From Betaproteobacteria bacterium (GTDB lineage: Bacteria; Pseudomonadota; Gammaproteobacteria; Burkholderiales; SG8-39): DNA of 64,000 bases. The DNA is taken from positions 7,634-71,633 of the forward strand of contig CANKMT010000008.1 of NCBI GenBank assembly GCA_947482825.1, read 5' to 3'. The position numbers were made by a program, and so were the translations under genes. The notes under the pieces are model-generated. The model was not told where the DNA came from, ran no database searches, and saw only the letters and a list, made by a program, of their open reading frames with translations. Positions 20,578 through 38,415 of this stretch are shown one piece after another. Position 1 is the first letter of the stretch. Every line of letters begins with the position of its first letter.

Positions 20578-21327
20578 TCAGGTGCGCAGGAACCCGCCGT
20601 CGACCGCCAGGGTTTCTCCGGTGACGAATGCCGACGCGTCGGAGGCGAGATACACCACGGCCAGCGCAATGTCCTGCGTGCTGGCGAAGCGCCCCAGCGG
20701 AAAGCGCGAGAGTACCCGCGCCCGCACTTCCGGGGTCATCAAGCCCCGAGTCATGTCGGTTTCGACCACGCCGGGCGAAATGGCGTTGACGCGAATGCCT
20801 TCCGGACCCAGGTCGCGCCCGAGTCCTTTGGTGATCGCGACCACCGCCGCCTTGGTGGTGCCGTACCAGACATTGCCGAAGGCGCCGCCACCTTTTTCTG
20901 CCGACACCGAGGCGATGTTGACGATTGCGGCTCCGGCGCGGCCCCGCATCGCCGGAACTGCAGCCTGCACGCAATTGAAGACGCCTGTCACATTGATGCC
21001 GATCAAGCGGTCCCACTCGGTGCGCGAAACCGCGTCGAACGGCCCGGTGCATACGATGCCGGCGTTATTGACCAGGATGTCCAGTCCGCCGTGGATGCGA
21101 ACGATCTCGGCGACCACGCGCTTGGCCGCTTCCTCGTCACGCACGTCCAGTCCAACGCCCGCGCATTGCGGGCCTTGTCGCGCAGCGCACGCGCGCGCGC
21201 CTTGCACATCGACATCGCCGACAAATACGATGCATCCGTTCTCGGCCAAGCCTTGCGCGATGCCTTCGCCGATTCCACGCGCGGCGCCGGTCACGAGCGC
21301 AACACGTCCGGTAAGGTCTGTGTTCAT
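20578..21327 (-). CDS. SDR family oxidoreductase (FabG-like)
   Basis: VTGAARGIGEG cofactor motif, NNAG, and S...YxxxK (YGTTKAA). I prefer the ATG at 21327 (MNTDLTGRVALVTG) over the track start at 21384. Confidence 0.88.
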   Translation of the reverse strand: MNTDLTGRVALVTGAARGIGEGIAQGLAENGCIVFVGDVDVQGARACAARQGPQCAGVGLDVRDEEAAKRVVAEIVRIHGGLDILVNNAGIVCTGPFDAVSRTEWDRLIGINVTGVFNCVQAAVPAMRGRAGAAIVNIASVSAEKGGGAFGNVWYGTTKAAVVAITKGLGRDLGPEGIRVNAISPGVVETDMTRGLMTPEVRARVLSRFPLGRFASTQDIALAVVYLASDASAFVTGETLAVDGGFLRT

Positions 21328-21421
21328 GGCTGCAATATCCTGTGAAGGCGGTCCGGTGGTCGAGGCCGTTGCGCGCGCGGACACGGTTCAGCCGCTGCCC
21401 CGCGCAATCGGGAAGTGCTTT

Positions 21422-21682
21422 CTATTGCACGGTGATGTTCGCGTCGCTCACGATCTTGCGGAATTTGGCGATTTCCGCGCGCAGGTAGGCGCCGAATTGC
21501 GCCGGCGCCAGGCCCGAGGTTTCCGCCCCCAGCTTCGCCATGTTGGCGCGGATATCGGGCATGCGAATGACCTCGGCCACGTCCGCATGGATCTTCGCCA
21601 CGATGTCCGGCGAGGTGACCGGTCGAACCTGAATGGACAGCGCAGTCACGGTTGCGGTCATCGATCTCCTCCTGGAATTCAA
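21422..21682 (-). pseudogene. C-terminal fragment (~65 aa) of a TTT/Bug-family solute receptor
   Basis: SPDIVAKIHADVAEVIRMPDIRANMAKLGAETSGLAPAQFGAYLRAEIAKFRKIV matches only the last ~20% of the five full-length Bug receptors in this window. There is no signal peptide and no N-domain. Confidence 0.6.
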
Positions 21683-21709
21683 AGCATCATGGCATTCTAG
21701 TGCGACCGA

Positions 21710-21928
21710 TCATCCCCGTTCCTCGTAAACCGCCTTAGCAACCTTCGCCGCGATGATGCCGTTCGGCCAGGCCGCGTAGAAGGCACGGTGCTCAAAGAGT
21801 TCCGAGAGTTCGTCGCGAGTCACGACGTTGAAGAGTACTGGGACGATCTCCTTGAGCGCAAGCCTCCAAGGCTTGTTGGTCTGCTCCGGCGCCATGTACA
21901 ACACCAACTCAGATGCGGTAACTCCCAC
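21710..21928 (-). pseudogene. carboxymuconolactone-decarboxylase (CMD/AhpD-like) family C-terminal fragment
   Basis: TRDELSELFEHRAFYAAWPNGIIAA resembles the last CMD helix pair. A GTG start and an in-frame TAG seven codons upstream limit it to fewer than 80 aa, which is shorter than a CMD domain protein. Confidence 0.45.
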
Positions 21929-22118
21929 TCCATGGACCGTGGCGCTCCTCTATGGTTCTCCCTCTTTTCCCGGTTGAGAAAAAAGCCACGAAAGGTTAAC
22001 GCCCGCGGCCTCACATAGGATCTTTGCGCTTTAGCCTTAGGCAAATGGCAGCAATTCGGCTGGTGGACCAATAGGGACGCGGGGGTCAGGCCAAAAATGG
22101 CAGTAATGAGGCTGCGGC

Positions 22119-23849
22119 TCAGGCCGCATCCTTCAACAGCGTCTGCCCCGGCTTCACGCGCGTGAACGCCACCGGTTTCATCGCAATCCCGAGCTTGCCG
22201 CCCTCCGCCATCGTCACGCTGGTATAGGCCGAAGTCTCCAGCGGACCTGCGGCCGGGAAGTCCGCGCGGAAATGCGCGCCGCGCGAATCCTCGCGCGCGA
22301 TCGCCGCCTCGGTGATGACCTTGCTCACCTGCACCAGGCTCTTCAGGTTCATCCAGTCGTGCCACGAGAGGTTGAAGCCGCGCTGGTGGTCGACCAGCGT
22401 GTGCGCATCCAGTTCATCGTCGATCCCCTTCAGCGCAGCAACCGCTTCGGCCAGCGGGGCGGCATCGCGGATGATGCCGACCTTGTCCCACATGAGGTCG
22501 AACAAGCCTTCGCGCAGCGGCTCGATGCTTCCGTGCGAAGCGCCTTTCGAGCGCAGCGGACGCTCGCACTGACCAACGGCTGCATCGATCGCCGCGCGGT
22601 CCGGGTCGCGGTGTCCGCCTTCGGTCTTGAGCCACGCGGCCATCGCCTCGCCGGCCACCCCGCCGAACACGGTCGAGTTCGCGACGCCGTTGCCGCCGAG
22701 GCGGTTGGCGCCATGCACGCCGCCCGAGTCCTCGCCCGCCGTGAACAAGCCCGGCAGCGCCGTAGTGCAATCGAGATTGAATTCCACGCCGCCCATCATG
22801 TAGTGAGCGGTCGGCACGACTTCCACGAGCCCACCAGCAAGATCAAAGCCCGAATCCGCACAACGTTCGACCATGCCCTTGAACATCTTCGTCACATTGG
22901 CCGGCCCGAGGTGCGCCATCGAGATATAGAGCCCGCCGTGCGGGCTGGTGCGTCCTGCGCGCATCTCGCTGTACATCGAACGCGACACGATGTCGCGCGT
23001 GGCGCGCTCGAGCTTGGCGTCGTACTTGTGCATGAAGCGCTCGCGATTGCCGTCGAGCAGGTAACCGCCGGAACCGCGGAGCCCTTCCTCGATCACGGTG
23101 CCCGTCATGCGCGTGTGGGTGCCGGCGAGCAATCCCGTCGGATGGAACTGCACCATCTCCATGTCGCGCACAGCGAGCCCCGCGCGCAGTGCCATCGCAA
23201 GGCCGTCGCAACTCTTGTCGCCCGAGGGCGTGTGGTACTTGTACATCGTCGGCCCGCCGCCGGTGGCGAGCAGCACGGCGCGCGCCCTGACGAACACATA
23301 CTCGCCGGTGCGCATGTCGATCATGAGCACGCCGGCCAGCGCATCGCCCGATGCGGTCTTCACAAGCTCGACGGCGCGGTGCTCTTCCAGCCGGCCGATG
23401 TCGCGCGCCCACACCTGTTCGGCCAGTCGGTTGATGATCTCGATGCCGGTGAGGTCGCCTTTATGCACCGTGCGATCGAACGTCTGGCCCGCAAAGGCTT
23501 TCTGGTGGACGGTGCCGTCGGGATTGCGGTCGAAGAAGCAGCCCAGTTCGTTTTCCAGCTCGTGGATGCGCTCTACCGCCAGCACGACGAGCTTCCACGC
23601 TAGGTCCTGGTCGGGTAGCCATTTGCCGCCCTCGATCGTGTCCATGAAGTGCCGCTCGATCGAATCGCCGGCGGCAAGCGCTACGTTGTAGCCGCCCTGG
23701 ACCATTCGCGTGCAGCCGCACTTGCCGAGGAGTCCTTTGACCGCCACGGTGATTTTGAGGTCGGGCGAGGCCTGGTGCGCATGCAGTGCGGCAAACAGGC
23801 CCGCGCCGCCGGAGCCCAGGATCAGGATGTCGGTATTCAATTCGCGCAT
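22119..23849 (-). CDS. FAD flavoprotein of the succinate dehydrogenase/fumarate reductase/L-aspartate oxidase family (stand-alone)
   Basis: GSGGAGL dinucleotide fold, FHPTG, LRGSGGYLL, HYMMGG, HGANRLGGN. The covalent-FAD His position reads GCTRMVQGG (no His). Starts 1 nt after the glmE-like stop. No Fe-S or membrane-anchor subunit genes are nearby. Confidence 0.88.
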   Translation of the reverse strand: MRELNTDILILGSGGAGLFAALHAHQASPDLKITVAVKGLLGKCGCTRMVQGGYNVALAAGDSIERHFMDTIEGGKWLPDQDLAWKLVVLAVERIHELENELGCFFDRNPDGTVHQKAFAGQTFDRTVHKGDLTGIEIINRLAEQVWARDIGRLEEHRAVELVKTASGDALAGVLMIDMRTGEYVFVRARAVLLATGGGPTMYKYHTPSGDKSCDGLAMALRAGLAVRDMEMVQFHPTGLLAGTHTRMTGTVIEEGLRGSGGYLLDGNRERFMHKYDAKLERATRDIVSRSMYSEMRAGRTSPHGGLYISMAHLGPANVTKMFKGMVERCADSGFDLAGGLVEVVPTAHYMMGGVEFNLDCTTALPGLFTAGEDSGGVHGANRLGGNGVANSTVFGGVAGEAMAAWLKTEGGHRDPDRAAIDAAVGQCERPLRSKGASHGSIEPLREGLFDLMWDKVGIIRDAAPLAEAVAALKGIDDELDAHTLVDHQRGFNLSWHDWMNLKSLVQVSKVITEAAIAREDSRGAHFRADFPAAGPLETSAYTSVTMAEGGKLGIAMKPVAFTRVKPGQTLLKDAA

Positions 23850-23850
23850 T

Positions 23851-25344
23851 TCAGGCAGCCCTCTTGTCCGACATCAGTTTTGCAATCGGTTCCGATATTT
23901 CGTAGACGCTCTGCACCGCGAGGTCGACGCCGAAAGGCACGTTCTCCCGCGTCGCGCGGCGGCGCAGCTTCTCTTCGTGGATTTCCATCACGTCCTTCGG
24001 GAAAGGCATCAGGCCCGGGTCGAAAATCCGCAGGCACCCGTCGGCATCACGCGCCGGCATCACGCGGCTCTTGACCCAGCGGTTCGGCGACCAGGGGATG
24101 TCGAGAACGCCGGCTTCGCATGCGCGCACCGTGCCGACGGCCGCGTCGCCGTCGCCCATCTCGAGCACTTTGTCCACCACCGGACGTACTTCGCGCTTGA
24201 TCAGGTCGACCTCGTCCTTGAATTCCTGCATCGAATCGAGCCGGATATGGCGCGCAAGGTAAACCGCGGTGCGCGTGATGCGCAGGCCTTCTGCGTTCGC
24301 CTTGGGCGTCGGGATGCCGAAGGCCTCATGGGTGCTCTTGGTCGTCACCGAATCGGCACCGGCGATCGCCGCGAGCGTGCCGCCATACGAAACCAGCGCC
24401 GCGCACTGCGCCTCGTCCTGAGGCCAGGCACCCATCCAGTGCAACAGCGTGATGGGGGTGTACACGTCCTTGTAGCCCTTGCGCGCGAGATACTCCTGGC
24501 AAAGTTCACGACAGGCTTTGACCGCAGCGGCATCCTGCACGAGGTGCAAGGTCTCGCCCATTTCGAGCCCGTAGTTGCGCACGCCTTGCGCCGCCGCGAG
24601 CAGCATGTCCAGGATCGCAACGATGATCGCCACCGAGGGCGGGATGTTCGTTCCCGTGAGGAATCCCGGCTGCCGGCGATGCAACTCGATGCCACGGTCC
24701 TGGTAGAGCGCCGTCAGCCGGTCGAGGTACTGGTAGTTGCGGATCCCGTCCTCAATCGAAAGCTCCTTGGTGTAGGAGGACGTATACGCGATGCCCGAGC
24801 CGAGATACCCGGTATAGCCGCCGGCAAAAGAGATCTCGCCGGTCAGCTTTGGCATCGCGGTGCCGGTCAGCATGATGGCCGGCTTGTCGATCGCGTCGAT
24901 CAGCTCGGCGGCCTTGGCCACGCCGTAGTTCACCATCGGATACCCGTTAAGGAGAGAGCGCCCCAGCCGCTCGGACTCTTCGACGCCTTTTTGCGCGAGG
25001 TGGAACTGCTCGTTGCGCGTATAGCTGTCGGTCGTGGTCGGCACCACGTCGGCCAGGCCTTCGCGGTCGAGCACCTGCATGAGTTCCTTCTGCAATTCGA
25101 ACGTGCCGAACCCGCCGCGCGGCTGGGTCAGGCAACGGCCCTCGGCGGACGCGGCGCGCATGACGGCGCTCAGCCGCTTGTGCGCGGGCAGGCGCTCATG
25201 GCGTTCGATCGCTTCGTCGAGGTTCACCCCGGCCCCGGTGGGCCAGCGCGCAAGGTTGCGCACGCGCATGCGCCCGAAGAGGTCTTCGTCGATGCGCGCC
25301 TCGGACAGCGCGGCCGCGAAATCGGGATCAGAGGGAGCGTTCAA
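23851..25344 (-). CDS. glmE: methylaspartate (glutamate) mutase E-subunit homologue
   Basis: WPTG..., TQPRGGFGT, TTDSYTRNEQ and RSLLNGYPMVNYGV match GlmE/MutE. The track start (25386) overlaps glmL by 59 nt. A TTG at 25344 preceded by GAGGAG (7-nt spacer) is the more likely start. See the findings for the atypical active-site positions. Confidence 0.85.
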   Translation of the reverse strand: MNAPSDPDFAAALSEARIDEDLFGRMRVRNLARWPTGAGVNLDEAIERHERLPAHKRLSAVMRAASAEGRCLTQPRGGFGTFELQKELMQVLDREGLADVVPTTTDSYTRNEQFHLAQKGVEESERLGRSLLNGYPMVNYGVAKAAELIDAIDKPAIMLTGTAMPKLTGEISFAGGYTGYLGSGIAYTSSYTKELSIEDGIRNYQYLDRLTALYQDRGIELHRRQPGFLTGTNIPPSVAIIVAILDMLLAAAQGVRNYGLEMGETLHLVQDAAAVKACRELCQEYLARKGYKDVYTPITLLHWMGAWPQDEAQCAALVSYGGTLAAIAGADSVTTKSTHEAFGIPTPKANAEGLRITRTAVYLARHIRLDSMQEFKDEVDLIKREVRPVVDKVLEMGDGDAAVGTVRACEAGVLDIPWSPNRWVKSRVMPARDADGCLRIFDPGLMPFPKDVMEIHEEKLRRRATRENVPFGVDLAVQSVYEISEPIAKLMSDKRAA

Positions 25345-26740
25345 GGGAGGACTCCTCGCGTGGGCTGTGCAGGTGGCCGAGCGCAAGTTCGAGCGCCGCT
25401 TCGGGCTCGACCTGGCTCAGCAATCCGCAAGCGTAAAGGATATAGCTGCGATCGATGAGGATGCGCGGCGCCTTCGGGCGCAGCGACCCCGGTTCCGCCG
25501 GATCGAACAGCGCCACCGAAAGCAGGTCTTGCGGGTCTGCGTCGTGCGCGATGACGCCGCCGGTGCCGATGAGCGTGCCGGCTGCGGACAGGTCCTTGCC
25601 GTCCTGCGCAGCGACTGGCCCATTGGCCGTGTACACAGTCTGCACACGACCGCAATGGCGGCGCATCGCGATCCGCAACGCAGCCCTCGCCAGCGCCCGG
25701 TCGAGCCTCGTTTCCTCAGTGCCGTTTGGCAGGCTTTCCACGTTGCGGGAGAGTTCGCCGACCAGGGCTTGCAGGCGCGCTTCGCTCAAGTCCGCGTCGG
25801 CCGCGACGGATGTGGCGCCCGCCGCCTCGACGATCGCGGCCGCGTTGTGGCGCATGCCGAGGTCGCCTTCGACCGTGCGCTTCACGCGCGGCTCCGGCAG
25901 CCCGCGCTGGATCACGCCGGGCGTGGCCGGCGCGCCGCTGGCCACCGAATGCACGTCGGTCGTGGCGCCGCCGGGATCGATGACGACGAGGTCGCCCAGC
26001 CCCGCAAAGCCTTTGCAGCCATCCGCAATCAACCGCGCGCCTTCCATGACCGCGGCGGGCGTCGGCATCAGGACCGCGTCGAACTCGGCCGCCGCGCGGT
26101 CGATGCCCTTGGCGTGGACGATGCGCTCGATGAACACGCTGCGGATCGCCGCGCGCGCCGGCTCGATGTTGAGTTCACCCAATTCGGGCATCACGTTTTC
26201 GGTCACCTGCGCCTGCTTGCGCGCAAGCAGCGCGTGCGCTTCGTCCGCCACCACCCGGTTGCCGGCGTAGATCAACGGACACACCAGGGCGCTCTCGCCG
26301 AGCATCCCGGCGTTGTGGAGGATCACTTCGCTGTTGCCCCCGTCGGTCCCGCCGGCAAGCAGCACGATGTCGGGCTGGATTTCGACGATGCGCGCGAGAT
26401 CTTTCGCCGTCAGCCGGTTGGCGTACGTCCCGACCAGCCTTGCTCCCGCGCCGAGCGCCGCCCAACGCGCCGCCTCGAGCGTGAGCTCGCGCACCAGCCC
26501 GATGGCCACCATGCGCAGGCCGCCCGCGGCGCTGCTCGATGCGAGCCGATGCCGAAACACCGGCAACCCGCCGAGCCTGCGCCCAAGATCGGCCAGCGCG
26601 GCATTCATACCGAGCGTGATGTCGGTCGTCACGGTGGAGGGCCCCTGCCCCGACCCGAGGAGCTTGCGCCGGTCGAGGTCGACCGCCCGCAGCTTGGTGT
26701 AGGTGCTGCCGAAGTCGATCAGGAGCGCTGCGCGGCTCAT
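25328..26740 (-). CDS. glmL: glutamate mutase L component (MutL/GlmL, ASKHA-fold reactivase/chaperone)
   Basis: 470 aa with an N-terminal LLIDFGSTYTK (actin-like ATPase phosphate-1 motif). It sits between the S and E genes as in clostridial mut/glm operons. 4-nt overlap with glmS. Confidence 0.82.
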   Translation of the reverse strand: MSRAALLIDFGSTYTKLRAVDLDRRKLLGSGQGPSTVTTDITLGMNAALADLGRRLGGLPVFRHRLASSSAAGGLRMVAIGLVRELTLEAARWAALGAGARLVGTYANRLTAKDLARIVEIQPDIVLLAGGTDGGNSEVILHNAGMLGESALVCPLIYAGNRVVADEAHALLARKQAQVTENVMPELGELNIEPARAAIRSVFIERIVHAKGIDRAAAEFDAVLMPTPAAVMEGARLIADGCKGFAGLGDLVVIDPGGATTDVHSVASGAPATPGVIQRGLPEPRVKRTVEGDLGMRHNAAAIVEAAGATSVAADADLSEARLQALVGELSRNVESLPNGTEETRLDRALARAALRIAMRRHCGRVQTVYTANGPVAAQDGKDLSAAGTLIGTGGVIAHDADPQDLLSVALFDPAEPGSLRPKAPRILIDRSYILYACGLLSQVEPEAALELALGHLHSPREESSLERSL

Positions 26741-27177
26741 GCGGGCTTGCCGATCCGCTCGCGCTCACCCAGGTCCTGCGCCAGCCACTCGAGCACCGCC
26801 TCGACGCGTGTGCCGGGCGCGGCCGCGCGATCGAATCCCATGTCGAGGAAAATCTTCTCGACCTGCTCCCAAGGGTGCTTGCCGACGACGAGGTTGCCGC
26901 CGACATACAGAAGCATGTTTTCGAGTCCGGCCTCCACGCACAGGTCGCGAAACCCCCGGCAGTCGAGCTCACCCTGCCCATAGAGCGAAGATACGAGAAT
27001 CGCGTCGGCATTCGTCTCGATGGCCGCGCGGATGAAGTCAGCGGCCGGCGTCAGCGCGCCAAGCGAGACCAGCTTGTAGCCAGCCTTTTCCAAAGCCATC
27101 GAGAGGATACGGTTGCCAACGATATGCGTGTCGGAGCCGATCACGCCCGTGACTATGGTTTTCTGGGTCATGGCCAA
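26737..27177 (-). CDS. glmS: methylaspartate mutase S subunit (cobalamin-binding)
   Basis: 146 aa. TIVTGVIGSDTHIVGNRIL carries the DxHxxG base-off/His-on motif. SSLYGQGELDC and LYVGGNLVVGK are nearly identical to clostridial GlmS/MutS as I remember it. Confidence 0.92.
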   Translation of the reverse strand: MAMTQKTIVTGVIGSDTHIVGNRILSMALEKAGYKLVSLGALTPAADFIRAAIETNADAILVSSLYGQGELDCRGFRDLCVEAGLENMLLYVGGNLVVGKHPWEQVEKIFLDMGFDRAAAPGTRVEAVLEWLAQDLGERERIGKPA

Positions 27178-27205
27178 CCCGTTGCGCGCGATTGGTTAGC
27201 CAAGA

Positions 27206-28171
27206 TCACTTGGGCGGACCGCTCTTCATGAGCGTCTGGAACGCGCTGATCTCGCCCTCGAGGAAGCGCTGCGCGTCCCTGATCGGAATGTAGCTGTCGG
27301 GCAGGGCGTACTGGTCGCGCAGGTAGTTGGCGAATTCCGGGGTCGCCGCGTATCGGCCGAGCGATGTCGCAAGCGCCTCCAGGCGCCGCGGGTCTGCGCC
27401 GGCCTTGGCGACGATCGCGCGCATTTGCGGCAGCAGGATGTCGTACCCGAGCTCGGCCGAAACCGGCACATCGGCGAACGGGGCGCCCAAGCGTTGCGTG
27501 GCGAAGAAAATCAGCGGCCGCATGGCCTTCGAGTCGAGGTGGCCCTTGACGTCGCCCGCTTGTTCGTAGAGCAGTTCCACGTGGCCGCCGAGCACCGAGG
27601 TGTACCTTTCGGCCGGCCGGCTGAACGGCACGCTGACGAGCTTGATCCCTTTGCTGGCAAGGTAGTTCACCGTCGTTTCGTCCGGGCTGTTCGGGCCGGT
27701 GATCGCGACCGAGATGCTGCCGGGCTTGGCCTTGTCGGCGGCGACCACGTCCGCCCAGCTCTGGAAGCGCCCATCGCCCTTGGCGAACAGGCCCGAGGGT
27801 TGCCGGATCATCACGCCGAGCGCGACGACGTCGTTCAGCTTGAACGGCGAATTGGGAAACGCCGCCATGGTCAGCGTATCGCCGGTCAGCACGGCGATTG
27901 CATGCGCATCGCCGCCGTTTGCGACCATTCTCTGCAGGCCGATGGTCCCCGTTGCGCCGGGCTGATTGATGACCGGGAACGAGCCCTTGAGGTCGGCTTC
28001 CAGCCACTTGGCGACGAAGCGGCCGAGGATATCGGCGCCGCCGCCCGGCCCCCACGGGACCACGACCTCGACCGGCTTCGAGGGGAAGCGGTCCTGCGCG
28101 GTTGCCGGCGCGGTCACCGAAGCGCACGCCACGGCCAGCACGCCAATCACTGCATTTTTCCAGTTTTTCAT
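27206..28171 (-). CDS. tripartite tricarboxylate transporter (TTT) substrate-binding protein, Bug/TctC family
   Basis: Start at ATG 28171 (MKNWKNAVIGVLAVACASVTAPATAQ signal peptide), preceded by AAGGAGA. The track ORF (to 28630) is an extension that overlaps the upstream gene. Confidence 0.9.
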   Translation of the reverse strand: MKNWKNAVIGVLAVACASVTAPATAQDRFPSKPVEVVVPWGPGGGADILGRFVAKWLEADLKGSFPVINQPGATGTIGLQRMVANGGDAHAIAVLTGDTLTMAAFPNSPFKLNDVVALGVMIRQPSGLFAKGDGRFQSWADVVAADKAKPGSISVAITGPNSPDETTVNYLASKGIKLVSVPFSRPAERYTSVLGGHVELLYEQAGDVKGHLDSKAMRPLIFFATQRLGAPFADVPVSAELGYDILLPQMRAIVAKAGADPRRLEALATSLGRYAATPEFANYLRDQYALPDSYIPIRDAQRFLEGEISAFQTLMKSGPPK

Positions 28172-28191
28172 TGTCGTCTCCTTTGTCATTG

Positions 28192-29271
28192 TCATCGGCC
28201 AGCGTAACTCGCTTCGCCGACTCTGAAACGCTTTACCGCATCCGCATCCAGCCGCGGGCTGAATCCCGGTTCGAGCACGATCGCACCTTGCGAAAACTGC
28301 AACGGCGACGCGAGCAAAGGCGCAACCGGCTTGAGGAACCCGTTCATCTCGCCCGCGTTCGTGATCCCGGTCCGGGCGGCGAGCCCCTCCATCCAGCAGC
28401 CCACCTCGCACGCTACACCGTTGCCGAGGACCGGCTCCATGCCAAGCGATCGGATCAGGGCCAGGCCCGCGGCGAGCCTTTGCATCGTGCCCATCTTCAT
28501 TAGCTTGAGCTTGATGAAGCGGGCCGCCTTCAGTTCGGCGGCCCGCTCGATGTCGGCCAATCCGTAGATCGACTCGTCGAGCATCATCGGCACCGGAGCG
28601 ACACGCGCCACCGCGACCGCCGATTCCCAATCGCCCGCCGCGCAGGGCTGCTCCAGCAGTTCGATGCCTTCGGGGCTCATGCGGGAAACGAATCGCAGCG
28701 CCTCGTCCCGGCTGTAGCCCTGGTTGCCGTCCACGCGGATCGCGGCACGGCCGTCGACGATGCGCTGTACCTCGCCAAGCTTTGCCAGGTCTTTTTCGAC
28801 ATCGAACCCGACCTTGACCTTGAACGTGCCGAATCCCTGCGCGAGCAGCGCATCGGCCTCGTTCTCGAGCGCGGCCCCGGATTCCGCGCTGACGATGCCG
28901 AGCAAAGGGGCGCGGGCCGGGGCGCGCACCTTCAGCGACTCGGCGTCTTCGAGCATTTCGATCGCGGTAGCGAGCGCCGTGACCGTGAACGGCGCGTGGT
29001 CCACCTGCTTCAGGAGCAACTCGACCGCCTCTTCACCCCGCAGGCCCGGCAAGCCGGCGGCCAGTTGCTGCATCAGCGTCCAGCTGCCTTCGACCGTCTC
29101 TTCGGTGTAGCCGGTGAGCACGGTCGCCTCGCCCAGGCCGATGCGTCCATCCGCGTCGCGCACTTCGGCGAGCAACGTGTCGAAGTGGCGCACGATGCCG
29201 AACGCGAGCTTGTACGGCACGCGCAAAGGCACCTCGACCCGGTGCAGTGAAATGGCCTCGATGCGGCTCAT
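28192..29271 (-). CDS. enolase-superfamily enzyme, MR/MLE subgroup (dipeptide-epimerase/cycloisomerase-like)
   Basis: 359 aa. KxK motif (FKVKVG), metal ligands in IRVDGNQGY / LLEQP / MMLDES, and a second Lys in KLKLMKMG. Confidence 0.85.
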   Translation of the reverse strand: MSRIEAISLHRVEVPLRVPYKLAFGIVRHFDTLLAEVRDADGRIGLGEATVLTGYTEETVEGSWTLMQQLAAGLPGLRGEEAVELLLKQVDHAPFTVTALATAIEMLEDAESLKVRAPARAPLLGIVSAESGAALENEADALLAQGFGTFKVKVGFDVEKDLAKLGEVQRIVDGRAAIRVDGNQGYSRDEALRFVSRMSPEGIELLEQPCAAGDWESAVAVARVAPVPMMLDESIYGLADIERAAELKAARFIKLKLMKMGTMQRLAAGLALIRSLGMEPVLGNGVACEVGCWMEGLAARTGITNAGEMNGFLKPVAPLLASPLQFSQGAIVLEPGFSPRLDADAVKRFRVGEASYAGR

Positions 29272-29293
29272 CGCTGAGGAGACTGACTGGCGC

Positions 29294-31330
29294 TCAAGGT
29301 GCGTGCGCCGGACCTCTTCGTCGTAGCACCTGCAGCACCAACGCGAGCACTACGCCCCCGAATCCGATGAAGTCGGCGATCGCCGACGGATAGACGAGCG
29401 CGAACCCGGCGATGATGAACAGGGCCCGCTCAATGACATTGGTCTTGATCAGCGCCCAGCCCTGGAACCCGGCCGCAAGCGCGGCGATGCCCACTGCGGC
29501 GGTCAGCGTGACCTCGGCAATCATCCACCAGTTGGCAGCCGCAAGCGCCTTGGTCGAGCCCATGAGCAGGAGGCCAAGCCCGCTTGGGTCGAGCACGAAC
29601 ATGAACGGCACGAGAAATGCGGGCGTGGTGTACTTCCAGCACTGCAGCGTGGTCTTGTAAGGGTCCCCGCCGGTGATCGCCGCCGCGGCGAAGGGCGACA
29701 GCGCGGTCGGCGGCGAGACTTCCGAGAGCACCGCGTAATAGAAGATGAACATGTGCGCCGCGTACTCGGGCACCTTGAGCGCGATCAGGGCCGGCGCCGC
29801 GATCACGGCGCAGATGATGTAGGAGGCCGTCACCGGCACCGCCAACCCGACGATCCAGACAATGAGCGCGGTGTAAATCGCGGTCAACAGAAGCGAGTTG
29901 CCGGCGTAGGCGAGCACGATGGAGCTGAACTTGAGCCCGAGGCCCGTCAGCGTCACGACGCCGACGATGAGCCCCGCGCCTGCGCAGGTCGCCGCCACGT
30001 TGAGCACGGCGCGCGAGCCGCCGTCGAGCGCCTTGACCAGCCCCGACTCGGCGATGCCCCGCCACGGCGAGATCTTTCCCTGGAAGATGTCGTAGGAGAG
30101 CAGCGTCGTGTCGCGCCGCAGGAAGCTGGTGGCCAGCGCCACAATCGTCGCCCAGAACACCGACAGCTCGGGCGAGAAGCCCATCATCATGAAAGCGACG
30201 ATCGAGACCAGCGAAAGGAAATGGAACCAGTACTTCTTCGCCAGGCTCCAGGCCGACTCGACCTGCTCGAACACCACGTCTTTCATGCCGAACTTGCGCA
30301 CGTCGATCTCGACCATGATGAACAGCGCCATGTAGTACAGGCAGGTGGGAATCACCGCCATCAGGATCACGTCGAGGTACGAAATCTTGAGGAACTCGGC
30401 GATCAGGAAGGCCGCCGCGCCGAGCACCGGCGGCGAGATGATCGCGCCCAGGCCGCCGGCGGCGAGCAGGCCGCCGGCTTCCTCCTTGTTGTAGCCGACC
30501 TTGGCGAGCATCGGCGCGGCCACCGCGCCCAGCGTCACGGTGGTCGCCACCCCGGACCCGGAAGGGCCGCCGAGCAGGAAGGAGGCGAGCGTCACCGTGC
30601 GCCCGGCGCTGGAGGGCTTGCCGCCCATCGCCGAGAAGGAGAAATCGATGAAGAACTTGCCCGCGCCCGAGAACTGCAGGAACGCCCCGTAGAGGGTGAA
30701 CAGGATGATCAGCGTCGAGGACACGTTGATCGCGGTGCCGAAAATGCCTTCGAGGGTCATGTACATGTGGCCGATCAGGCGCGGCACCTCGTAACCCTTG
30801 TGGGTCCAGGGCGCGGGCAGGTACGCCCCGAAGAACGCATACGCGAGAAAGCAGCCGGTGATGAACGGCAGGATCCAGCCCGTGGTGCGCCGCATCGCCT
30901 CGAGCACCAGCAGCACCAGCAGCACGCCGAAGGCGATGTCCCAGTCGTTCGGCACGATCGAGCGGTCGAAGAACTCGTCGCCCCCGGCGATCAGGTAGGC
31001 CGCGGTCGCGATGCCCGCCAGCGCAAGCAGCCAATCCCACCACATGACGCGGTGGCGAAAGCGCCGCGCGACCGGAAAGATCAGGAACGACAGGAACAGC
31101 ACGAAGGCGACGTGGATCGCGCGCAGGTGCTCGGGGCGCACGATGGCGTAGGCGGTGTAGAGGTGGAACAGCGACATCGCCACCGCCACCGTCGTCACGA
31201 AGGCGGCGAGCCAGCCGACAAGCTTGTTCTGGACGCCCTCCTCGCGCTCGATCATTTCCTCGGCGCGCGCGAGCGCGGCCTCGCTGACCTCCTTGGAGGG
31301 CTGGTGCAGCCTCGTGATCTCTTCGCTCAT
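29294..31330 (-). CDS. TAXI-type TRAP transporter fused (4TM/12TM) permease
   Basis: About 678 aa from ATG 31330 (MSEEITRLHQ...), highly polytopic. It lies downstream of a TAXI receptor. The track N-terminal extension is R/P-rich. Confidence 0.88.
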   Translation of the reverse strand: MSEEITRLHQPSKEVSEAALARAEEMIEREEGVQNKLVGWLAAFVTTVAVAMSLFHLYTAYAIVRPEHLRAIHVAFVLFLSFLIFPVARRFRHRVMWWDWLLALAGIATAAYLIAGGDEFFDRSIVPNDWDIAFGVLLVLLVLEAMRRTTGWILPFITGCFLAYAFFGAYLPAPWTHKGYEVPRLIGHMYMTLEGIFGTAINVSSTLIILFTLYGAFLQFSGAGKFFIDFSFSAMGGKPSSAGRTVTLASFLLGGPSGSGVATTVTLGAVAAPMLAKVGYNKEEAGGLLAAGGLGAIISPPVLGAAAFLIAEFLKISYLDVILMAVIPTCLYYMALFIMVEIDVRKFGMKDVVFEQVESAWSLAKKYWFHFLSLVSIVAFMMMGFSPELSVFWATIVALATSFLRRDTTLLSYDIFQGKISPWRGIAESGLVKALDGGSRAVLNVAATCAGAGLIVGVVTLTGLGLKFSSIVLAYAGNSLLLTAIYTALIVWIVGLAVPVTASYIICAVIAAPALIALKVPEYAAHMFIFYYAVLSEVSPPTALSPFAAAAITGGDPYKTTLQCWKYTTPAFLVPFMFVLDPSGLGLLLMGSTKALAAANWWMIAEVTLTAAVGIAALAAGFQGWALIKTNVIERALFIIAGFALVYPSAIADFIGFGGVVLALVLQVLRRRGPAHAP

Positions 31331-31403
31331 CTCTCTGTCCCCAGAATGAAAAGCCCCGCCAGAAGCCTGGACGGGGTCCGGGGTCCCGGGTCCGCGCGTC
31401 CGG

Positions 31404-32426
31404 CTACTTCTTCGCGGCCTTGTCCACCTTCTTGGCGCCCGTGTCAGTAACCTTCGCGGCGGCGGCACCCGCGCCCATCACGTTGATGCCCTGCTCGGCG
31501 AAATACTTGAGCGCCGCCGGATGCCAGGGGATCGACGAATTCGCGGCGCGCTGGTTCTCGGGCTTGATGTTCACCGCCTCGGCGTGTACGCGCACCAGGT
31601 CGACGCGATGCTCCCAGAGGGTCTTGATGATCGTGTACGCGGTCTTGTCGTCCATGCTCGCGTGCACGGCGAGCAGGTTGGTCACCGTTGCGGCCTGATT
31701 GTCGGCGGTCATGCCGTTATACATCCGCTGCGGGATCACGTCCTTCACGTAGATGTTGCCGTACTTCTTCTCCATCTCCGGCACCAGGTGGGCGATGTCG
31801 ATCATCCTGATCTTCACCCCGGGCGAGTTGGCGAGATCCGTCACCGCCGCCGTCGGCAGGCCGCCGACCCAGAAGAACGCGTCGATCTTGCGGTCCTTGA
31901 GCGCGTTGACGGATTCGGCGACGCCGAGTCTTTCCCTGCGCATGTCCTTGTCCTTATCAAGGCCGGCCGCCTCGATGACACGGAATCCAAACACCTCGGT
32001 CGCACTGCCGCCCGAGCCGGTGGACACGCGCTTGCCCTTCAGGTCCGTAATCTTCGTGACGCCGGTGCCCTCGATCGACACCACGTGCATGCGGTTCGGA
32101 TAAAGCACCGCGATAGTGCGCACGGGAATCGGCTTGCCCGCGAATTTGTCCTCGCCCTTGAGCGCATCGATCGCCGCGTCGGCCTGCGTGAACGCGATGT
32201 AGGGCTTGCCGGTGCCGATGAGCTGCATGTTCGCAACCGAGCCGCCGGTGACTTCGGCGGTGGCCTGCATGCCAGGCACTTTGGACAGCACTGCGGCCAC
32301 GCCGCCGCCGAGCGGGTAATACACCCCGCCGGTGCCACCGGTGGCGATGGAGATGTTCTGCGCTCCGGCAAGTGCCGAAAACGCGACGCCCACTGCAAGG
32401 GCTATGAGGCCGCTGAGTTTTTTCAT
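31404..32426 (-). CDS. TAXI-family TRAP transporter solute receptor
   Basis: ATG 32426 (MKKLSGLIALAVGVAFSALAGAQ) preceded by AAGGAGA. ATGGTGGVYYPLGGG is the TAXI (TIGR02122-type) hallmark. Confidence 0.9.
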   Translation of the reverse strand: MKKLSGLIALAVGVAFSALAGAQNISIATGGTGGVYYPLGGGVAAVLSKVPGMQATAEVTGGSVANMQLIGTGKPYIAFTQADAAIDALKGEDKFAGKPIPVRTIAVLYPNRMHVVSIEGTGVTKITDLKGKRVSTGSGGSATEVFGFRVIEAAGLDKDKDMRRERLGVAESVNALKDRKIDAFFWVGGLPTAAVTDLANSPGVKIRMIDIAHLVPEMEKKYGNIYVKDVIPQRMYNGMTADNQAATVTNLLAVHASMDDKTAYTIIKTLWEHRVDLVRVHAEAVNIKPENQRAANSSIPWHPAALKYFAEQGINVMGAGAAAAKVTDTGAKKVDKAAKK

Positions 32427-32548: not shown

Positions 32549-33556
32549 CTATTTTTCCTTCAGCTGGGCGGCGTTTACCACACGTTGGTTGGCGGCAAGC
32601 TCTTCCCGAATGAAGCCGTCGAACTCTTCAGGCTTCATCGCCGAGGCCCGAGCGCCGAGCGTTTCGAACCTCGCCTTGACGTCGGCGGACTCGAGGACCT
32701 TGGCCACCTCCGCGTTCAGTCTTTCGACGATCGCGCGCGGCGTCTTGCTCGGAGCGAGCAACCCCACCCAGAACACGTAATCCGCAACCCCCGCCTCGGC
32801 CGTCGTCGGCACGATTGGCCATTGCGGCAGTCGGGTCGGGGAACCGACCGCTAGCGCCTTGAGCTTGCCGCTTTGGATGAACGGCATGGTCGCCGCGAGC
32901 GGCGCGAACATGTAATCGACGCGTCCGCCGACGATTTCCGCCATGCCGTCGGAAGTGCCCTTAAAAGGAATATGCACCGCCTCGAATGCGGCCTGCACCC
33001 TGAACTTCTCCGCGTTCAGGTGCGTGGAACTCCCATTGCCCGCCGATGCATAGTTGAGCTTGCCTGGATTCGATCGACCGAAGGCGATCAGTTCACCGAC
33101 TGAGCCGAAACGAGCCTGCGCCGAGGCCACGAGGACCACGGGCATCACGACAAGCATGGTGACTCCTGAAAAATCCCGCAGCGTGTCGAACGGGAGATTC
33201 GACATCATCGCCGGACTGATCGTGTGGTTGGAGGATGAAACGAGCAGAGTGTGGCCGTCCGGACTTGCGCTTGCGACAAGCCCGGCGCCAAGCGTCCCAC
33301 CCGCACCAGCTCGATTCTCGACGAGGACGGGCTGGCCGAGAGCGGCGCTGAGCTTGTCCGAAATCGAACGCGCGACGATATCGTTGGTGCTGCCTGCGGA
33401 AAACGAAACGATCAGCCTGATCGGCTTCGACGGGAAAGGCTGCGCGAAGACGGCGGCTGCGCTCGACCCCAAGACGAGCGCGGTGACCAGACCCGCGGCG
33501 CCCCTTAGTAGCCGCTCCCGGGCAAGCACTCCGATGTGACAATGGATATGGTTCAT
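32549..33556 (-). CDS. TTT substrate-binding protein, Bug/TctC family
   Basis: QPFPSKPIRLIVSFSAGS start of the mature protein. ATGA overlap with the upstream LLM gene. Confidence 0.9.
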   Translation of the reverse strand: MNHIHCHIGVLARERLLRGAAGLVTALVLGSSAAAVFAQPFPSKPIRLIVSFSAGSTNDIVARSISDKLSAALGQPVLVENRAGAGGTLGAGLVASASPDGHTLLVSSSNHTISPAMMSNLPFDTLRDFSGVTMLVVMPVVLVASAQARFGSVGELIAFGRSNPGKLNYASAGNGSSTHLNAEKFRVQAAFEAVHIPFKGTSDGMAEIVGGRVDYMFAPLAATMPFIQSGKLKALAVGSPTRLPQWPIVPTTAEAGVADYVFWVGLLAPSKTPRAIVERLNAEVAKVLESADVKARFETLGARASAMKPEEFDGFIREELAANQRVVNAAQLKEK

Positions 33557-34716: not shown

Positions 34717-35043
34717 ATGCTGTATGAAATGCGTATCTATCATTCCATGCCGGGGCGCCTCCCGGACGTGAGCAAACGCTTCGAAACGATCGCGAAGAAA
34801 TACTGGGACAAACACGGGGTTCGTCCGATCGGCTTTTGGACCGTGATGATCGGTCCGAGCAATCAGGATATTTACTACATCCTCGAATGGAAGGATCTCG
34901 CGGAGCGCGAAAGGGTCTGGGGCGCTTTTACCTCGGATCCTGGCTGGCTGGAAGAAAAGGCCGCATCCGAAAAGGACGGACAGCTTGTTGCCAGCATCGA
35001 GAACATCATGCTTACGCCGACGGCCTATTCGAAGCTCAAATGA
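34717..35043 (+). CDS. NIPSNAP family protein
   Basis: 108 aa. MLYEMRIYH...IYYILEWKDLAERE is the typical NIPSNAP dimeric alpha-beta barrel. GAGGAG Shine-Dalgarno. Confidence 0.85.
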   Translation: MLYEMRIYHSMPGRLPDVSKRFETIAKKYWDKHGVRPIGFWTVMIGPSNQDIYYILEWKDLAERERVWGAFTSDPGWLEEKAASEKDGQLVASIENIMLTPTAYSKLK

Positions 35044-38388: not shown

Positions 38389-38394
38389 TGACAA

Positions 38395-38414: not shown

Positions 38415-38415
38415 C

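Follow-up and report, generated by a model that had tools for sequence, protein, structure and literature searches.

Based on our findings, we propose that the GlmS/GlmE-like enzyme encoded in the window (the whole 64-kb stretch of DNA analysed) is a B12 mutase whose substrate is a sulfonated carboxylic acid, a reading to which we assign a probability of about 0.5. Its active-site residues make it improbable that the cluster's enzyme is a glutamate mutase.

An eight-gene mutase cluster and its flanks

The minus strand carries all eight genes at positions 22119-32426 of the window; profile matches and coordinates bear out the original prediction of eight co-directional genes comprising an S-L-E mutase, a flavoprotein, an MLE-type enzyme and two kinds of solute receptor. 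Families were assigned from Pfam and NCBIfam profile matches, using the NCBIfam cutoffs. First in transcription order is a TAXI-family TRAP solute-binding protein (31404..32426; PF16868, and TIGR02122 at 276 bits against a cutoff of 84), with AAGGAGA ahead of its ATG at 32426. It is followed by a fused TRAP permease of the DctQ-DctM type (29294..31330; TIGR02123 at 554 bits, cutoff 321), with ATG 31330, 73 nt past the TAXI stop, as its likely start, and by an MLE-subgroup enzyme of the enolase superfamily (28192..29271; MR_MLE_C, PF13378). The translation of the next gene, with its signal peptide and TctC fold, identifies a TctC/Bug-family (TTT) periplasmic solute receptor (27206..28195), which starts at ATG 28195 or at ATG 28171, the latter with a strong Shine-Dalgarno sequence; the overlapping ORF 27168-28127 was rejected as the TctC gene in favour of the frame at 27206. 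Then come a GlmS-like cobalamin-binding small subunit (26737..27177; PF02310, NF002612 at 190 bits, cutoff 110, with the DxHxxG motif as SDTHIVG), a GlmL/MutL-type mutase accessory (reactivase) protein (25328..26740; PF13941, NF040745 at 573 bits, cutoff 475), the catalytic large subunit of a GlmE-family AdoCbl mutase (23851..25344; PF06368, TIGR01503 at 442 bits, cutoff 390) and an SdhA/FrdA-type flavoprotein (22119..23849; FAD_binding_2, PF00890, and Succ_DH_flav_C, PF02910). The successive junctions measure 73 nt (TAXI/TRAP), 22, -4 or +20 (set by the choice of TctC start), about 28-34, -4, -17 (GlmL/GlmE) and 1 nt (GlmE/flavoprotein), so that the predicted range of -4 to 73 nt matched except at the GlmL/GlmE overlap. 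The identical eight-gene order in an independent metagenome contig, L009 (GlmE 91% and TRAP permease 77% identical), indicates that the arrangement did not arise by chance. TctC orthologues (44-84% identity) also lie within the mutase cluster of relatives.

Further genes may belong to the system. A second TctC receptor (32549-33556, minus strand; PF03401) and a luciferase-like (LLM) oxidoreductase (33553-34536, minus strand; PF00296, TIGR03619 at 186 bits) are co-directional with the cluster, 122 nt from the TAXI gene, and may be an upstream extension of its transcription unit; they are not kept in L009, where TetR abuts TAXI. The divergent TetR regulator of the window (about 35049-35657, plus strand) is likely the cluster's regulator and the acyl-CoA ligase beside it (about 35675-37324, plus strand; PF00501 and PF13193) likely an activating enzyme for it, the two being 88% and 80% identical to the proteins encoded directly beside the L009 cluster. 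At the other end, a TauE/SafE-family membrane protein (19818-20552, plus strand; PF01925 at 102 bits), about 1.6 kb from the flavoprotein gene, and an SDR (20578-21384, minus strand; adh_short) may be neighbours belonging to the cluster. The SDR is 98% identical in L011, where it adjoins the cluster; the TauE protein is only 32% identical to those encoded beside the mutase in 12 related loci.

Active site of the mutase

The S-L-E order is common to this cluster and to glutamate mutase GlmS/GlmE with GlmL (EC 5.4.99.1; C. cochlearium PDB 1CCW/1CB7/1I9C; E. coli O157 ECs_0762-0764), as are the small-subunit DxHxxG base-off/His-on motif and the PF06368 fold of the large subunit. The window GlmE aligns with C. 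cochlearium GlmE (1CB7_B) without gaps over 464 residues (HMMER E-value 2e-111) and shares about 39-41% identity with canonical sequences, namely GlmE of E. coli O157 and representatives of the family. In glutamate mutase, the glycyl moiety is held by R66, R149 and E171 and the acrylate by R100 and Y177 (PMC10947579). The window GlmE keeps R66, R100, Y177, Y181, K326 and E330, and carries R149L, H150T, N170Y and E171L, and also E214R. All 91 clade sequences, which come from Beta-, Alpha- and Gammaproteobacteria and Nitrospira, share the substituted signature without variation, position 150 being T or S. Thirteen positions alone separate the clade from 35 canonical mutases, among which Arg149, Glu171 and Glu214 are invariant: R149L, E171L, the charge reversal E214R and ten more.

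R149L and E171L take away the groups that bind the alpha-carboxylate and amino group of glutamate, making the enzyme an unlikely producer of 3-methylaspartate. The pocket retains its acrylate (-CH2-CH2-COO-) half and cofactor residues, and the half for the migrating group is rebuilt, with Leu at 149 and 171, a new Arg at 214 and hydroxyl residues at 150 and 170. This agrees with one of the two routes put forward originally, in which the mutase acts on a different acid. The surroundings also differ from those of glutamate mutase systems: methylaspartase, mesaconase and citramalate lyase are missing here, and the mutase is accompanied by an MLE-type enzyme, by TTT/TRAP receptors and, in relatives, by sulfonate genes. 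The predicted absence of methylaspartase held up, as tblastn with the E. coli O157 enzyme at E <= 1e-3 drew no match from either the window or 90 related loci. The neighbourhoods of related loci contain no glutamate, mesaconate or citramalate genes, and mesaconyl-CoA, citramalyl-CoA and methylmalyl-CoA enzymes are absent from the loci.

Partner enzymes

Our neighbourhood survey covered 80 species-level genomes, in which 43 loci with good flanks were counted. The MLE-type enzyme is the constant partner of the mutase: its gene is present at 36 of these 43 loci, and at 43 of the 49 having at least 4.5 kb of upstream flank. The conservation anticipated for the GlmE neighbourhood thus holds for the MLE gene but not for the flavoprotein gene, which occurs at 7 of the 43 and is cleanly deleted from L011, the closest relative; the flavoprotein is an accessory, dispensable member of the cluster.

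The nearest solved structures to the MLE-type enzyme are dipeptide epimerases and N-succinyl-amino-acid racemases, at an E-value of only about 1e-24. K151-x-K153, D181, E207, D232 and K256 are invariant across 53 orthologues. Like 3-methylaspartate ammonia-lyase (MAL subgroup), the enzyme belongs to the enolase superfamily and is encoded beside a GlmSE-type mutase, but no sequence similarity between the two is detectable and, unlike MAL, it shows the two-base arrangement of the MLE subgroup (KxK plus K) that racemases, epimerases and cycloisomerases typically have. It may act on the substrate or product of the mutase as a racemase/epimerase or as a beta-elimination lyase.

The flavoprotein shares with SdhA/FrdA and NadB the FAD_binding_2 plus C-terminal domain architecture and equivalents of the catalytic H242, R286, H354 and R399, and falls below every NCBIfam cutoff (TfrA, 489 against 718; NadB, 335 against 453). 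As in NadB and soluble fumarate reductases, the covalent-FAD site has no His. In contrast to NadB, it has Phe for Glu121, as do SdhA and FrdA. Thr254 is replaced by an invariant Glu. The other route originally considered, a NadB-like oxidation of 3-methylaspartate, therefore lacks support, the more so as the mutase is unlikely to make that compound. No Fe-S or membrane subunit for the flavoprotein is encoded in the window; such subunits are present at sister loci, and flavoprotein orthologues 63-79% identical adjoin SdhB-like, Sdh_cyt and fumarase-like genes. The flavoprotein may be an oxidoreductase for a succinate/fumarate-like acid, such as 3-sulfopropionate/3-sulfoacrylate.

Sulfonate genes in related genomes

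Xsc and/or SauS are encoded at 20 of the 43 well-flanked loci, and loci with either are spread over several classes and phyla; in part, these genes share a co-directional array with the mutase. The Xsc proteins score 816-1063 bits against a curated equivalog cutoff of 676, and SauS 741 and 781 bits against 600; since the Xsc copies look canonical, they lend no support to the use of 2-sulfopropanal. A Qor-like NADPH reductase, found at 26 of the 43, is a commoner companion of the mutase than the flavoprotein, and most loci have it together with neither flavoprotein nor hydratase. In L002, L003 and L022, a single co-directional array reads Xsc-MLE-reductase-GlmS-L-E-TctCBA-SDR-SauS-SauT, and in L002, L075 and L085 a type II/2-methylcitrate synthase adjoins Pta. 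Such arrays resemble the sulfoacetate clusters of C. necator H16 and Bilophila wadsworthia, with SauXYZ (TTT transporter), SauT or SauCD, SauS and Xsc (PMC10413351), in their TctCBA, SauS, AMP- or ADP-forming ligase, Xsc, Pta and TauE; the described clusters, in contrast, have no B12 mutase, MLE enzyme or Qor-like reductase. This organosulfonate context (Xsc, SauS, SauT or SucCD-like ligase, TauE) was missing from the original prediction. Genes for Xsc, SauS, SucCD-like, fumarase-like, SdhB-like or Qor-like proteins are found neither in the 64-kb window nor within about 13 kb in L009 and L011, its two closest relatives.

Other loci recall the metabolism of 3-sulfopropionate, described for HpfX/HpfYZ of Enterococcus gilvus (PMC11489063), which also states that no 3-sulfopropionate degradation genes have been published. 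A CoA-acylating aldehyde dehydrogenase, a SucCD-like ligase and TauE are encoded near the mutase in related loci, and succinyl-CoA-synthetase-like ligases are known to activate sulfoacetate and 3-sulfopropionate (PMC10413351, PMC11489063). CoA ligase genes, SauT or SucCD-like, occur at some of the loci; the SucCD-like proteins score slightly under the cutoffs for succinate-CoA ligase, and their substrate motifs are altered, with neither the HpfYZ signature (GIN / His) nor that of succinyl-CoA synthetase (GIV / Tyr). The L074 array reads FumN-MLE-GlmS-L-E-FumC-flavoprotein-2-hydroxyacid DH-Ldh_2, its sister loci have SdhB- and SdhC-like genes, and some related loci have sulfolactate-dehydrogenase-like genes beside SdhB/C and fumarase-like ones. 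These genes appear to be dedicated paralogues of the succinate dehydrogenase, fumarase and malate dehydrogenase genes, which would fit the thesis-reported route from 3-sulfopropionate via sulfoacrylate to sulfolactate in Roseovarius nubinhibens (cited in PMC11489063).

Discussion

We suggest a mechanism in which the GlmS/GlmE-like enzyme would be an adenosylcobalamin carbon-skeleton mutase whose migrating group carries the sulfonate. The simplest candidate, which leads the field and is put forward tentatively, would be the interconversion of 3-sulfopropionate and 2-sulfopropionate, by fragmentation into acrylate and a sulfite radical followed by recombination. This step would mirror the glycyl-radical/acrylate mechanism of glutamate mutase and be the sulfonate counterpart of succinyl-/methylmalonyl-CoA mutase. 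With its two invariant lysine bases, the MLE-type enzyme would either carry out an elimination or racemise the alpha-sulfo acid, in the way that methylmalonyl-CoA epimerase serves its own mutase. The SdhA-type flavoprotein in the window, or the Qor-like NADPH reductase in most relatives, would convert 3-sulfopropionate and 3-sulfoacrylate into each other. The link to sulfolactate and sulfopyruvate would be provided in relatives by 2-hydroxyacid dehydrogenases together with hydratases of the fumarase-like or AcnX type, and CoA ligase, SauS, Xsc and TauE would serve the release of sulfite. The order and direction of these steps are as we infer them.

The logic of this enzyme set seems akin to that of methylmalonyl-CoA mutase and epimerase in the succinate-propionate pathway and of the ethylmalonyl-CoA segment Ccr-epimerase-Ecm-Mcd-Mch: a B12 mutase, a proton-abstracting epimerase, an MDR-type reductase or FAD dehydrogenase, and a hydratase. 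Succinyl/methylmalonyl and the proposed 3-/2-sulfopropionate pair are isosteric. In contrast, the families are unrelated (GlmE TIM barrel versus MCM; enolase superfamily versus VOC-fold epimerase), and the substrates here would be free acids instead of CoA esters. Several points weigh against our scheme. With no Xsc or SauS in the window, nor within about 13 kb in its closest relatives, a sulfonate link for this subclade would rest on the shared active-site signature and the weakly similar TauE. We know of no natural source of 2-sulfopropionate and of no precedent for B12-dependent migration of a sulfonate, and the invariant Glu for Thr254 in the flavoprotein would be unexpected beside an anionic sulfonate. 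Since TctABC, SauS, ligase and Xsc form a self-sufficient sulfoacetate pathway (PMC10413351), the mutase module could also be a separate function, merely co-located.

A competing possibility, which we consider rather improbable, is a non-sulfonated C4-C5 acid: 2-hydroxyglutarate (yielding 3-methylmalate), 2-methyleneglutarate, 2-oxoglutarate, or free methylmalonate/succinate. The MLE-type enzyme would then be a dehydratase or epimerase; methylsuccinate, mesaconate and citramalate would be handled by the flavoprotein or Qor-like reductase and fumarase-like enzymes, and the sulfonate genes would be adjacent for another reason, such as co-regulated use of sulfoacetate C2 units. Glutamate mutase reportedly rearranges 2-hydroxyglutarate slowly, and C4/C5 dicarboxylates are common ligands of TAXI receptors. 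Class I fumarases act as mesaconases (PMC4682846), the enzyme set parallels the ethylmalonyl-CoA pathway, and the window and its closest relatives have no sulfonate-specific genes. However, Leu in place of Arg149 and Glu171 fits badly with substrates that keep an alpha-carboxylate and an OH or oxo group, and chance is an unlikely cause of Xsc or SauS recurring so widely. Dedicated Sdh, Fum and SucCD paralogues would also be superfluous if the product were succinate, and the mesaconyl-CoA, citramalyl-CoA and methylmalyl-CoA enzymes are absent.

Within the sulfonated-acid reading, and counted in its 0.5, lies an unlikely variant in which another sulfonated acid is the substrate of the mutase and sulfoacetate the end point of the pathway. 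For example, 2-sulfoglutarate would be rearranged by the mutase to 2-sulfo-3-methylsuccinate, desaturated by the Sdh-like flavoprotein to "sulfomesaconate", hydrated by a fumarase-like or AcnX enzyme to "sulfocitramalate" and split into pyruvate and sulfoacetate, which SauT/SauCD, SauS and Xsc would degrade; or 4-oxo-5-sulfopentanoate would undergo acyl migration and be split into sulfoacetyl-CoA and propionyl-CoA. The complete module around the mutase genes (TTT transporter, ligase, SauS, canonical Xsc, Pta, TauE) argues for this, as does the synthase adjoining Pta. In glutamate fermentation, acetate stems from the migrating glycyl unit, and a sulfonated migrating unit would yield sulfoacetate; loss of Glu171 and gain of Arg214 would fit an exchange of NH3+ for SO3-, and tricarboxylate-type transporters would suit a trianionic substrate. 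Against it, no lyase, hydrolase or thiolase for the C-C cleavage is conserved at the loci, and most loci have the Qor-like reductase without flavoprotein and hydratase. To our knowledge, there is no natural-product report of 2-sulfoglutarate, 4-oxo-5-sulfopentanoate or their derivatives.

A genuine glutamate mutase, its 3-methylaspartate removed by the MLE-type enzyme in place of methylaspartase or oxidised by the flavoprotein, is very improbable: each of the three subunits scores above the NCBIfam equivalog cutoff for methylaspartate mutase, the mutase and MLE genes are tightly linked and, because methylaspartase too belongs to the enolase superfamily, an analogue of the MLE type could be imagined, but two of the three glycyl-holding residues are Leu in every clade member and Glu214 is Arg, the flavoprotein is dispensable and without the NadB Glu121, and the neighbourhoods are devoid of glutamate, mesaconate and citramalate genes.

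We found no publication on such a system. Because the mutase-MLE core of relatives is embedded in organosulfonate clusters, it points to a sulfonated substrate and not to an ordinary dicarboxylate. In the explanation that we favour, TAXI-TRAP and TctC would take up an anionic organic acid other than glutamate and the remaining genes would convert it; the substrate of the B12 mutase is probably an undescribed one, likely containing sulfur.

Organization of the cluster

ORF listing and family scans confirmed the 8 co-directional minus-strand genes predicted at 22119–32426. In transcription order, these encode a TAXI receptor (31404–32426; TIGR02122), a fused TRAP permease (29294–31330), an MR/MLE-type enzyme of the enolase superfamily, hereafter the MLE enzyme (28192–29271; PF13378 match), a PF03401-type TctC receptor (27206–28195; its frame differs from that of the longest ORF there), the GlmS-like (26737–27177; SDTHIVG motif), GlmL-like (25328–26740), and GlmE-like (23851–25344; PF06368 fold) subunits of a mutase, and a 576-aa FAD_binding_2/Succ_DH_flav_C flavoprotein (22119–23849). 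By start-codon inspection, the junctions measure 73, 22, -4 (or +20), ~30, -4, -17, and 1 nt. Family profiles place periplasmic binding proteins of both the TctC and the TAXI type in the cluster. In L009, an independent metagenome contig (L-numbers denote related loci fetched from other genomes), the 8 genes recur in unchanged order with a GlmE 91% identical to ours. Upstream of the cluster lie, co-directionally, a second TctC gene and a luciferase-like oxidoreductase gene; a TetR/acyl-CoA ligase pair is divergent from the cluster and also flanks it in L009, where AcnX follows the pair.

The window has a GC content of ~65% and resembles uncultured Burkholderiales; no Rfam model, riboswitches included, matched above its gathering score in the 64 kb. 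The divergent stretch at 34717–41372 holds a small ORF (34717–35043, presumably NIPSNAP-like, as recognized by eye), the TetR and acyl-CoA ligase genes, and genes for an aldo-keto reductase, a PRK06289-type thiolase-like protein, an NMO/FabK-like protein, and an alpha/beta hydrolase. Farther along, a carotenoid/lignostilbene-type cleavage dioxygenase gene (42426–43880) is followed by a small ORF (43972–44391), placed where the small membrane component of a TRAP system would lie, and by genes for a large TRAP DctM permease (44399–45691) and a TRAP DctP-type receptor (45702–46724). On the other side, 3 paralogous OadA/PycB-type carboxyltransferase genes with HMGL-like and PYC_OADA domains (10880–12427 and 16105–17553, minus strand; 18330–19775, plus strand; 46–64% mutual identity), in 2 of which we scanned for a biotinyl domain and detected none, are interleaved with an acyl-CoA ligase gene (12855–14438) and a thiolase-like gene (14460–15605), an unusual set with no obvious pathway. 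At least 5 TctC/Bug-family receptor paralogues occur in the 64 kb (27206–28195, 32549–33556, 41300–42394, 57855–58937, and 61132–62124); expansion of these receptors is typical of Burkholderiales.

A rebuilt substrate pocket in the mutase

NCBIfam equivalog models accept all 3 subunits as methylaspartate mutase. The small subunit, in which SDTHIVG represents the DxHxxG motif, has the features of a Rossmann-type B12-binding protein and scores 190 bits against NF002612 (cutoff 110). The window GlmE aligns without gaps to the E subunit of Clostridium cochlearium (1CB7_B), whose residue numbers we use. Arg66, Arg100, Tyr177, and Tyr181 are retained, and Arg149 is replaced by Leu, His150 by Thr, Asn170 by Tyr, and Glu171 by Leu, so that the complete arginine claw (R66, R100, R149) and Glu171 of glutamate mutase are not present. 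The cofactor/ribose and acrylate-site residues R100, Y177, Y181, K326, and E330 are conserved in the window GlmE and in 91 members of the clade formed by its relatives. In glutamate mutase, R66, R149, and E171 hold the migrating glycyl moiety, E171 contacting the amine, and R100 and Y177 hold the acrylate fragment, according to a 2022 structural study (PMC10947579). Given these roles and the substitutions, the pocket retains the side that binds -CH2-CH2-COO-, and its side facing the amino-acid end has been rebuilt.

L149, T/S150, Y170, L171, and Arg214 are common to all 91 clade GlmE sequences from the fetched loci, whereas R149 and E171 are invariant in 35 canonical sequences (that of E. coli O157 and 34 family representatives, one of which is the C. 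cochlearium enzyme). The 2 groups differ at only 13 positions that are conserved inside each of them, among these R149L, E171L, and the charge reversal E214R; we found no documented role for Glu214 of glutamate mutase in the accessible literature. This pattern, as read from the alignments, indicates changed specificity under purifying selection rather than decay, and the mutase is probably not an ordinary glutamate mutase.

Conserved partners in related loci

A scan with 1 genome per species yielded 195 confirmed relatives, of which the best 80 (71–96% identity) were analyzed with flanks of up to 10 kb on each side of the mutase. These 80 are mostly Burkholderiales MAGs (Casimicrobiaceae, Polynucleobacter) and include Alpha- and Gammaproteobacteria, Acidiferrobacterales, and 1 Nitrospira bin; the clade with the changed pocket is represented in at least 80 species-level genomes and may take in as many as ~195 of the pattern matches. 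Cultured carriers include Polynucleobacter spp. and the Burkholderiaceae isolate ZE-4 (OZ248351). With the E. coli O157 methylaspartase as query, tblastn gave no match in the window or in 90 related loci, and the pairing of glutamate mutase with methylaspartate ammonia-lyase was not found there; nor does the window have the NRPS/PKS genes that accompany glutamate mutase in antibiotic clusters. The original prediction that the cluster lacks methylaspartase and departs from the usual glutamate-mutase operon is borne out.

The MLE enzyme and the flavoprotein had both been expected to be conserved neighbors of GlmE; this held for the former and failed for the latter. An MLE-type gene is present in 43 of the 49 loci having at least 4.5 kb upstream, and the residues K151, K153, D181, E207, D232, and K256 do not vary among 53 orthologues; they correspond to the MLE-subgroup KxK that closes strand 2, D/E/D metal ligands, and Lys that closes strand 6. 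The flavoprotein occurs in only 7 of 43 well-flanked loci. Its gene has been almost wholly removed by a clean deletion in the closest relative (L011; GlmE 96% identical), where L011:11661–11813 corresponds to window 21629–23684; the DNA of L011 is 86–96% identical to that of the window, the flanks of the deletion included. The MLE enzyme is a core partner and the flavoprotein an accessory. A Qor-like NADPH-dependent MDR reductase is encoded in 26 of the 43 well-flanked loci; both it and the flavoprotein are found in 2 of the 43, with ~4 expected by chance, and mutual exclusivity of the 2 cannot be claimed. Of additional note, a 487-aa protein of the saccharopine dehydrogenase family (Sacchrp_dh_NADP and Sacchrp_dh_C domains, no NCBIfam match), encoded divergently from GlmE, recurs beside the mutase and SauS in 7 loci (L010, L016, L024, L035, L041, L044, and L052); its presence might hint that the substrate is a secondary amine (N-sulfoethyl).

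The flavoprotein

Alignment to SdhA and NadB of E. coli shows that the flavoprotein keeps the FAD-binding fold and the catalytic His-Arg-His-Arg set of SdhA/FrdA (equivalents of H242, R286, H354, and R399). The site of covalent 8-alpha-N3-histidyl FAD attachment reads GCTRMVQGG and has no His; family members that act as enoate (fumarate-type) reductases typically lack covalent FAD. No SdhB- or SdhC-like gene for an Fe-S subunit or membrane anchor lies in the window; orthologues in L039, L047, L053, and L074 do have SdhB- and Sdh_cyt-like neighbors. The position of NadB Glu121, which binds the substrate amino group, is Phe in all orthologues, and the score against TIGR00551 (NadB) is 335 bits (cutoff 453). 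Because Phe replaces this amine-binding residue, we reject an enzyme of the aspartate oxidase type, and the NadB-like oxidation of 3-methylaspartate suggested earlier finds no support. In 8 orthologues (window, L009, L037, L039, L047, L053, L068, and L074), the active-site loop Thr (SdhA T254/FrdA T244) is replaced by Glu, giving an "EE" pair; Glu at this position was not seen in E. coli SdhA, FrdA, or NadB, and a more distant homologue (L063, 49% identical) has Ala.

Organosulfonate genes around the mutase in related loci

The recurrent accessory genes near the mutase in the relatives encode organosulfonate enzymes. A thiamine pyrophosphate (TPP) enzyme there is sulfoacetaldehyde acetyltransferase (Xsc; 816–1063 bits, cutoff 676) and an aldehyde dehydrogenase is SauS of sulfoacetate degradation (741 and 781 bits, cutoff 600), accompanied by an AMP-forming ligase or by a divergent SucCD-like ligase whose scores fall just short of the cutoffs for succinate-CoA ligase and whose substrate motifs are altered. 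Of the 43 well-flanked loci, 20 contain Xsc or SauS; TauE/SafE genes are found in 12 loci, and Pta and a type II/2-methylcitrate synthase in some. In L002, L003, and L022, a single co-directional array runs Xsc-MLE-reductase-GlmS-L-E-TctC-B-A-SDR-SauS-ligase. In a second set of loci, the flavoprotein orthologue is accompanied by an SdhB-like Fe-S protein, an Sdh_cyt membrane subunit, a 2-subunit class-I fumarase-like hydratase, a D-2-hydroxyacid dehydrogenase, and an Ldh_2 protein that matches L-sulfolactate dehydrogenase best; the mutase genes of L074 lie between the 2 fumarase subunit genes, and L047, L057, and L085 combine this Sdh/fumarase/Ldh_2-type set with SauS, SauT, or Xsc. Beside the mutase and Xsc of a Polynucleobacter locus (L006:14937–20248) lie CbbQ/CobT-like genes, a GntR regulator, an Ldh_2 dehydrogenase, and a dehydratase of the UxaA/GD_AH family accompanied by a small ORF; the two have a SuyAB-like architecture, although the score to galactarate dehydratase is only 150 bits, and the whole set may be a module for sulfolactate.

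Known sulfoacetate and 3-sulfopropionate metabolism already makes use of TTT transporters, SucCD-like ligases, and SauS (PMC10413351, PMC11489063), which supports a link of the mutase loci to sulfonates. The SucCD-like ligases match neither the published 3-sulfopropionate type (HpfYZ) nor the succinyl-CoA synthetase signature, and the Xsc copies score as canonical Xsc, leaving the idea of a divergent paralogue for 2-sulfopropanal unsupported. The 64-kb window itself has no Xsc, SauS, SucCD, fumarase, SdhB, or Qor-like gene, nor the combination of Xsc, SauS, and sulfoacetate-CoA ligase with a transporter that marks a Sau/Xsc cluster. A PRK08327-type TPP enzyme adjoining a TctC gene (62117–63988; 491 bits, cutoff 456) was rejected as Xsc at 24% identity. 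Since Xsc, SauS, and the ligase are found in related loci and not in the window, the window cluster is tied to the sulfonate system by homology of the mutase core. Full-text literature searches turned up no publication in which a GlmE-type mutase is linked to sulfonates, TctC, or MLE enzymes. On comparative grounds, the family context points to organosulfonate catabolism.

Discussion

Based on our findings, we put the probability that the mutase acts on a sulfonated substrate at about one half. The co-occurrence of dedicated Sdh, fumarase, malate-type dehydrogenase, and succinyl-CoA synthetase paralogues with Xsc and SauS suggests a series of sulfonates isosteric with the C4 dicarboxylates: 3-sulfopropionate would stand for succinate, 3-sulfoacrylate for fumarate, sulfolactate for malate, and sulfopyruvate for oxaloacetate. 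In this frame, the sole skeletal isomerization available would be 3-sulfopropionate to 2-sulfopropionate and back, the analogue of the succinyl-/methylmalonyl-CoA reaction; we advance this specific reaction tentatively, as the leading candidate, though in itself rather unlikely. By fragmentation-recombination of the glutamate-mutase type, the acrylate fragment would stay in the conserved R100/Y177/Y181 site, and R66, the newly gained R214, and the hydroxyl side chains of residues 150 and 170 would hold a sulfite radical. The mutase would thereby move the sulfonate to the alpha position, from which it could be expelled as sulfite by CoA ligase, SauS, and TPP (Xsc-type) chemistry. The 2-base MLE enzyme would racemize the alpha-sulfo acid, its role and that of the Qor-like reductase being assigned by analogy. 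In the window, the flavoprotein may link 3-sulfoacrylate and 3-sulfopropionate, and the TetR-linked ligase may activate an acid. Weak points of the sulfopropionate reading are the lack of Xsc and SauS in the window and the canonical nature of the relatives' Xsc copies. We know of no source of 2-sulfopropionate. Drafts for 4-sulfobutanoate, 2-sulfoglutarate, 5-sulfolevulinate, N-sulfoethyl-glutamate, and a sulfolactate eliminase would also be chemically consistent, and sequence alone singles out none.

That the substrate is a non-sulfonated C4-C5 acid and the sulfonate genes are merely co-located is rather unlikely; the window lacks sulfonate-specific genes, but in related loci Xsc and SauS lie partly in co-directional arrays with the mutase genes. 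Another sulfonated acid yielding sulfoacetate, for example 2-sulfoglutarate through a sulfo-version of the methylaspartate pathway, is rather improbable and is counted within our even estimate for sulfonates; SauS and Xsc would suit it. A genuine glutamate mutase followed by an unconventional step fits the equivalog assignments and is very improbable given the Leu residues at 149 and 171. Returning to 3-sulfopropionate, it is doubtful, if conceivable, that the mutase is the first adenosylcobalamin enzyme to move a sulfonate, a "3-sulfopropionate mutase" working by sulfite-radical/acrylate fragmentation-recombination in a retooled glutamate-mutase pocket with a paired enolase-superfamily racemase. 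There is a credible chance of radical C–S chemistry new to this kind of enzyme.

To our knowledge, very few B12-dependent carbon-skeleton mutases have been described, and every newly found one opened a pathway. Members of the changed-pocket clade occur in Beta-, Alpha-, and Gammaproteobacteria, Nitrospira, and Acidiferrobacterales, and because databases name them methylaspartate mutase, the potential for glutamate fermentation and the methylaspartate cycle is over-called in metagenomes. More widely, only 34 of 119 full-length 50%-identity PF06368 representatives keep the glutamate signature (R66/R100/R149/H150/E171/Y177/Y181, scored on GlmE family representatives P0121–P0270), and dozens of further pocket variants occur among them. 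Other substrates are probable for many proteins that carry the methylaspartate mutase annotation, and since so few keep the signature, the whole GlmE family amounts to a reservoir of mutase specificities that has scarcely been explored.

3-Sulfopropionate and 3-hydroxypropanesulfonate are end products of sulfoquinovose and DHPS fermentation. Their degradation is a stated gap, being unreported (PMC11489063); the sole 3-sulfopropionate degradation route reported, from a thesis and as far as its citation in PMC11489063 describes it, passes through sulfoacrylate and sulfolactate. If the substrate is a sulfonate, the mutase would fill this gap and add radical C–S chemistry to B12 enzymology, and a 3-sulfopropionate mutase would be the missing entry step in the aerobic breakdown of 3-sulfopropionate and 3-hydroxypropanesulfonate by widespread freshwater and soil Burkholderiales.
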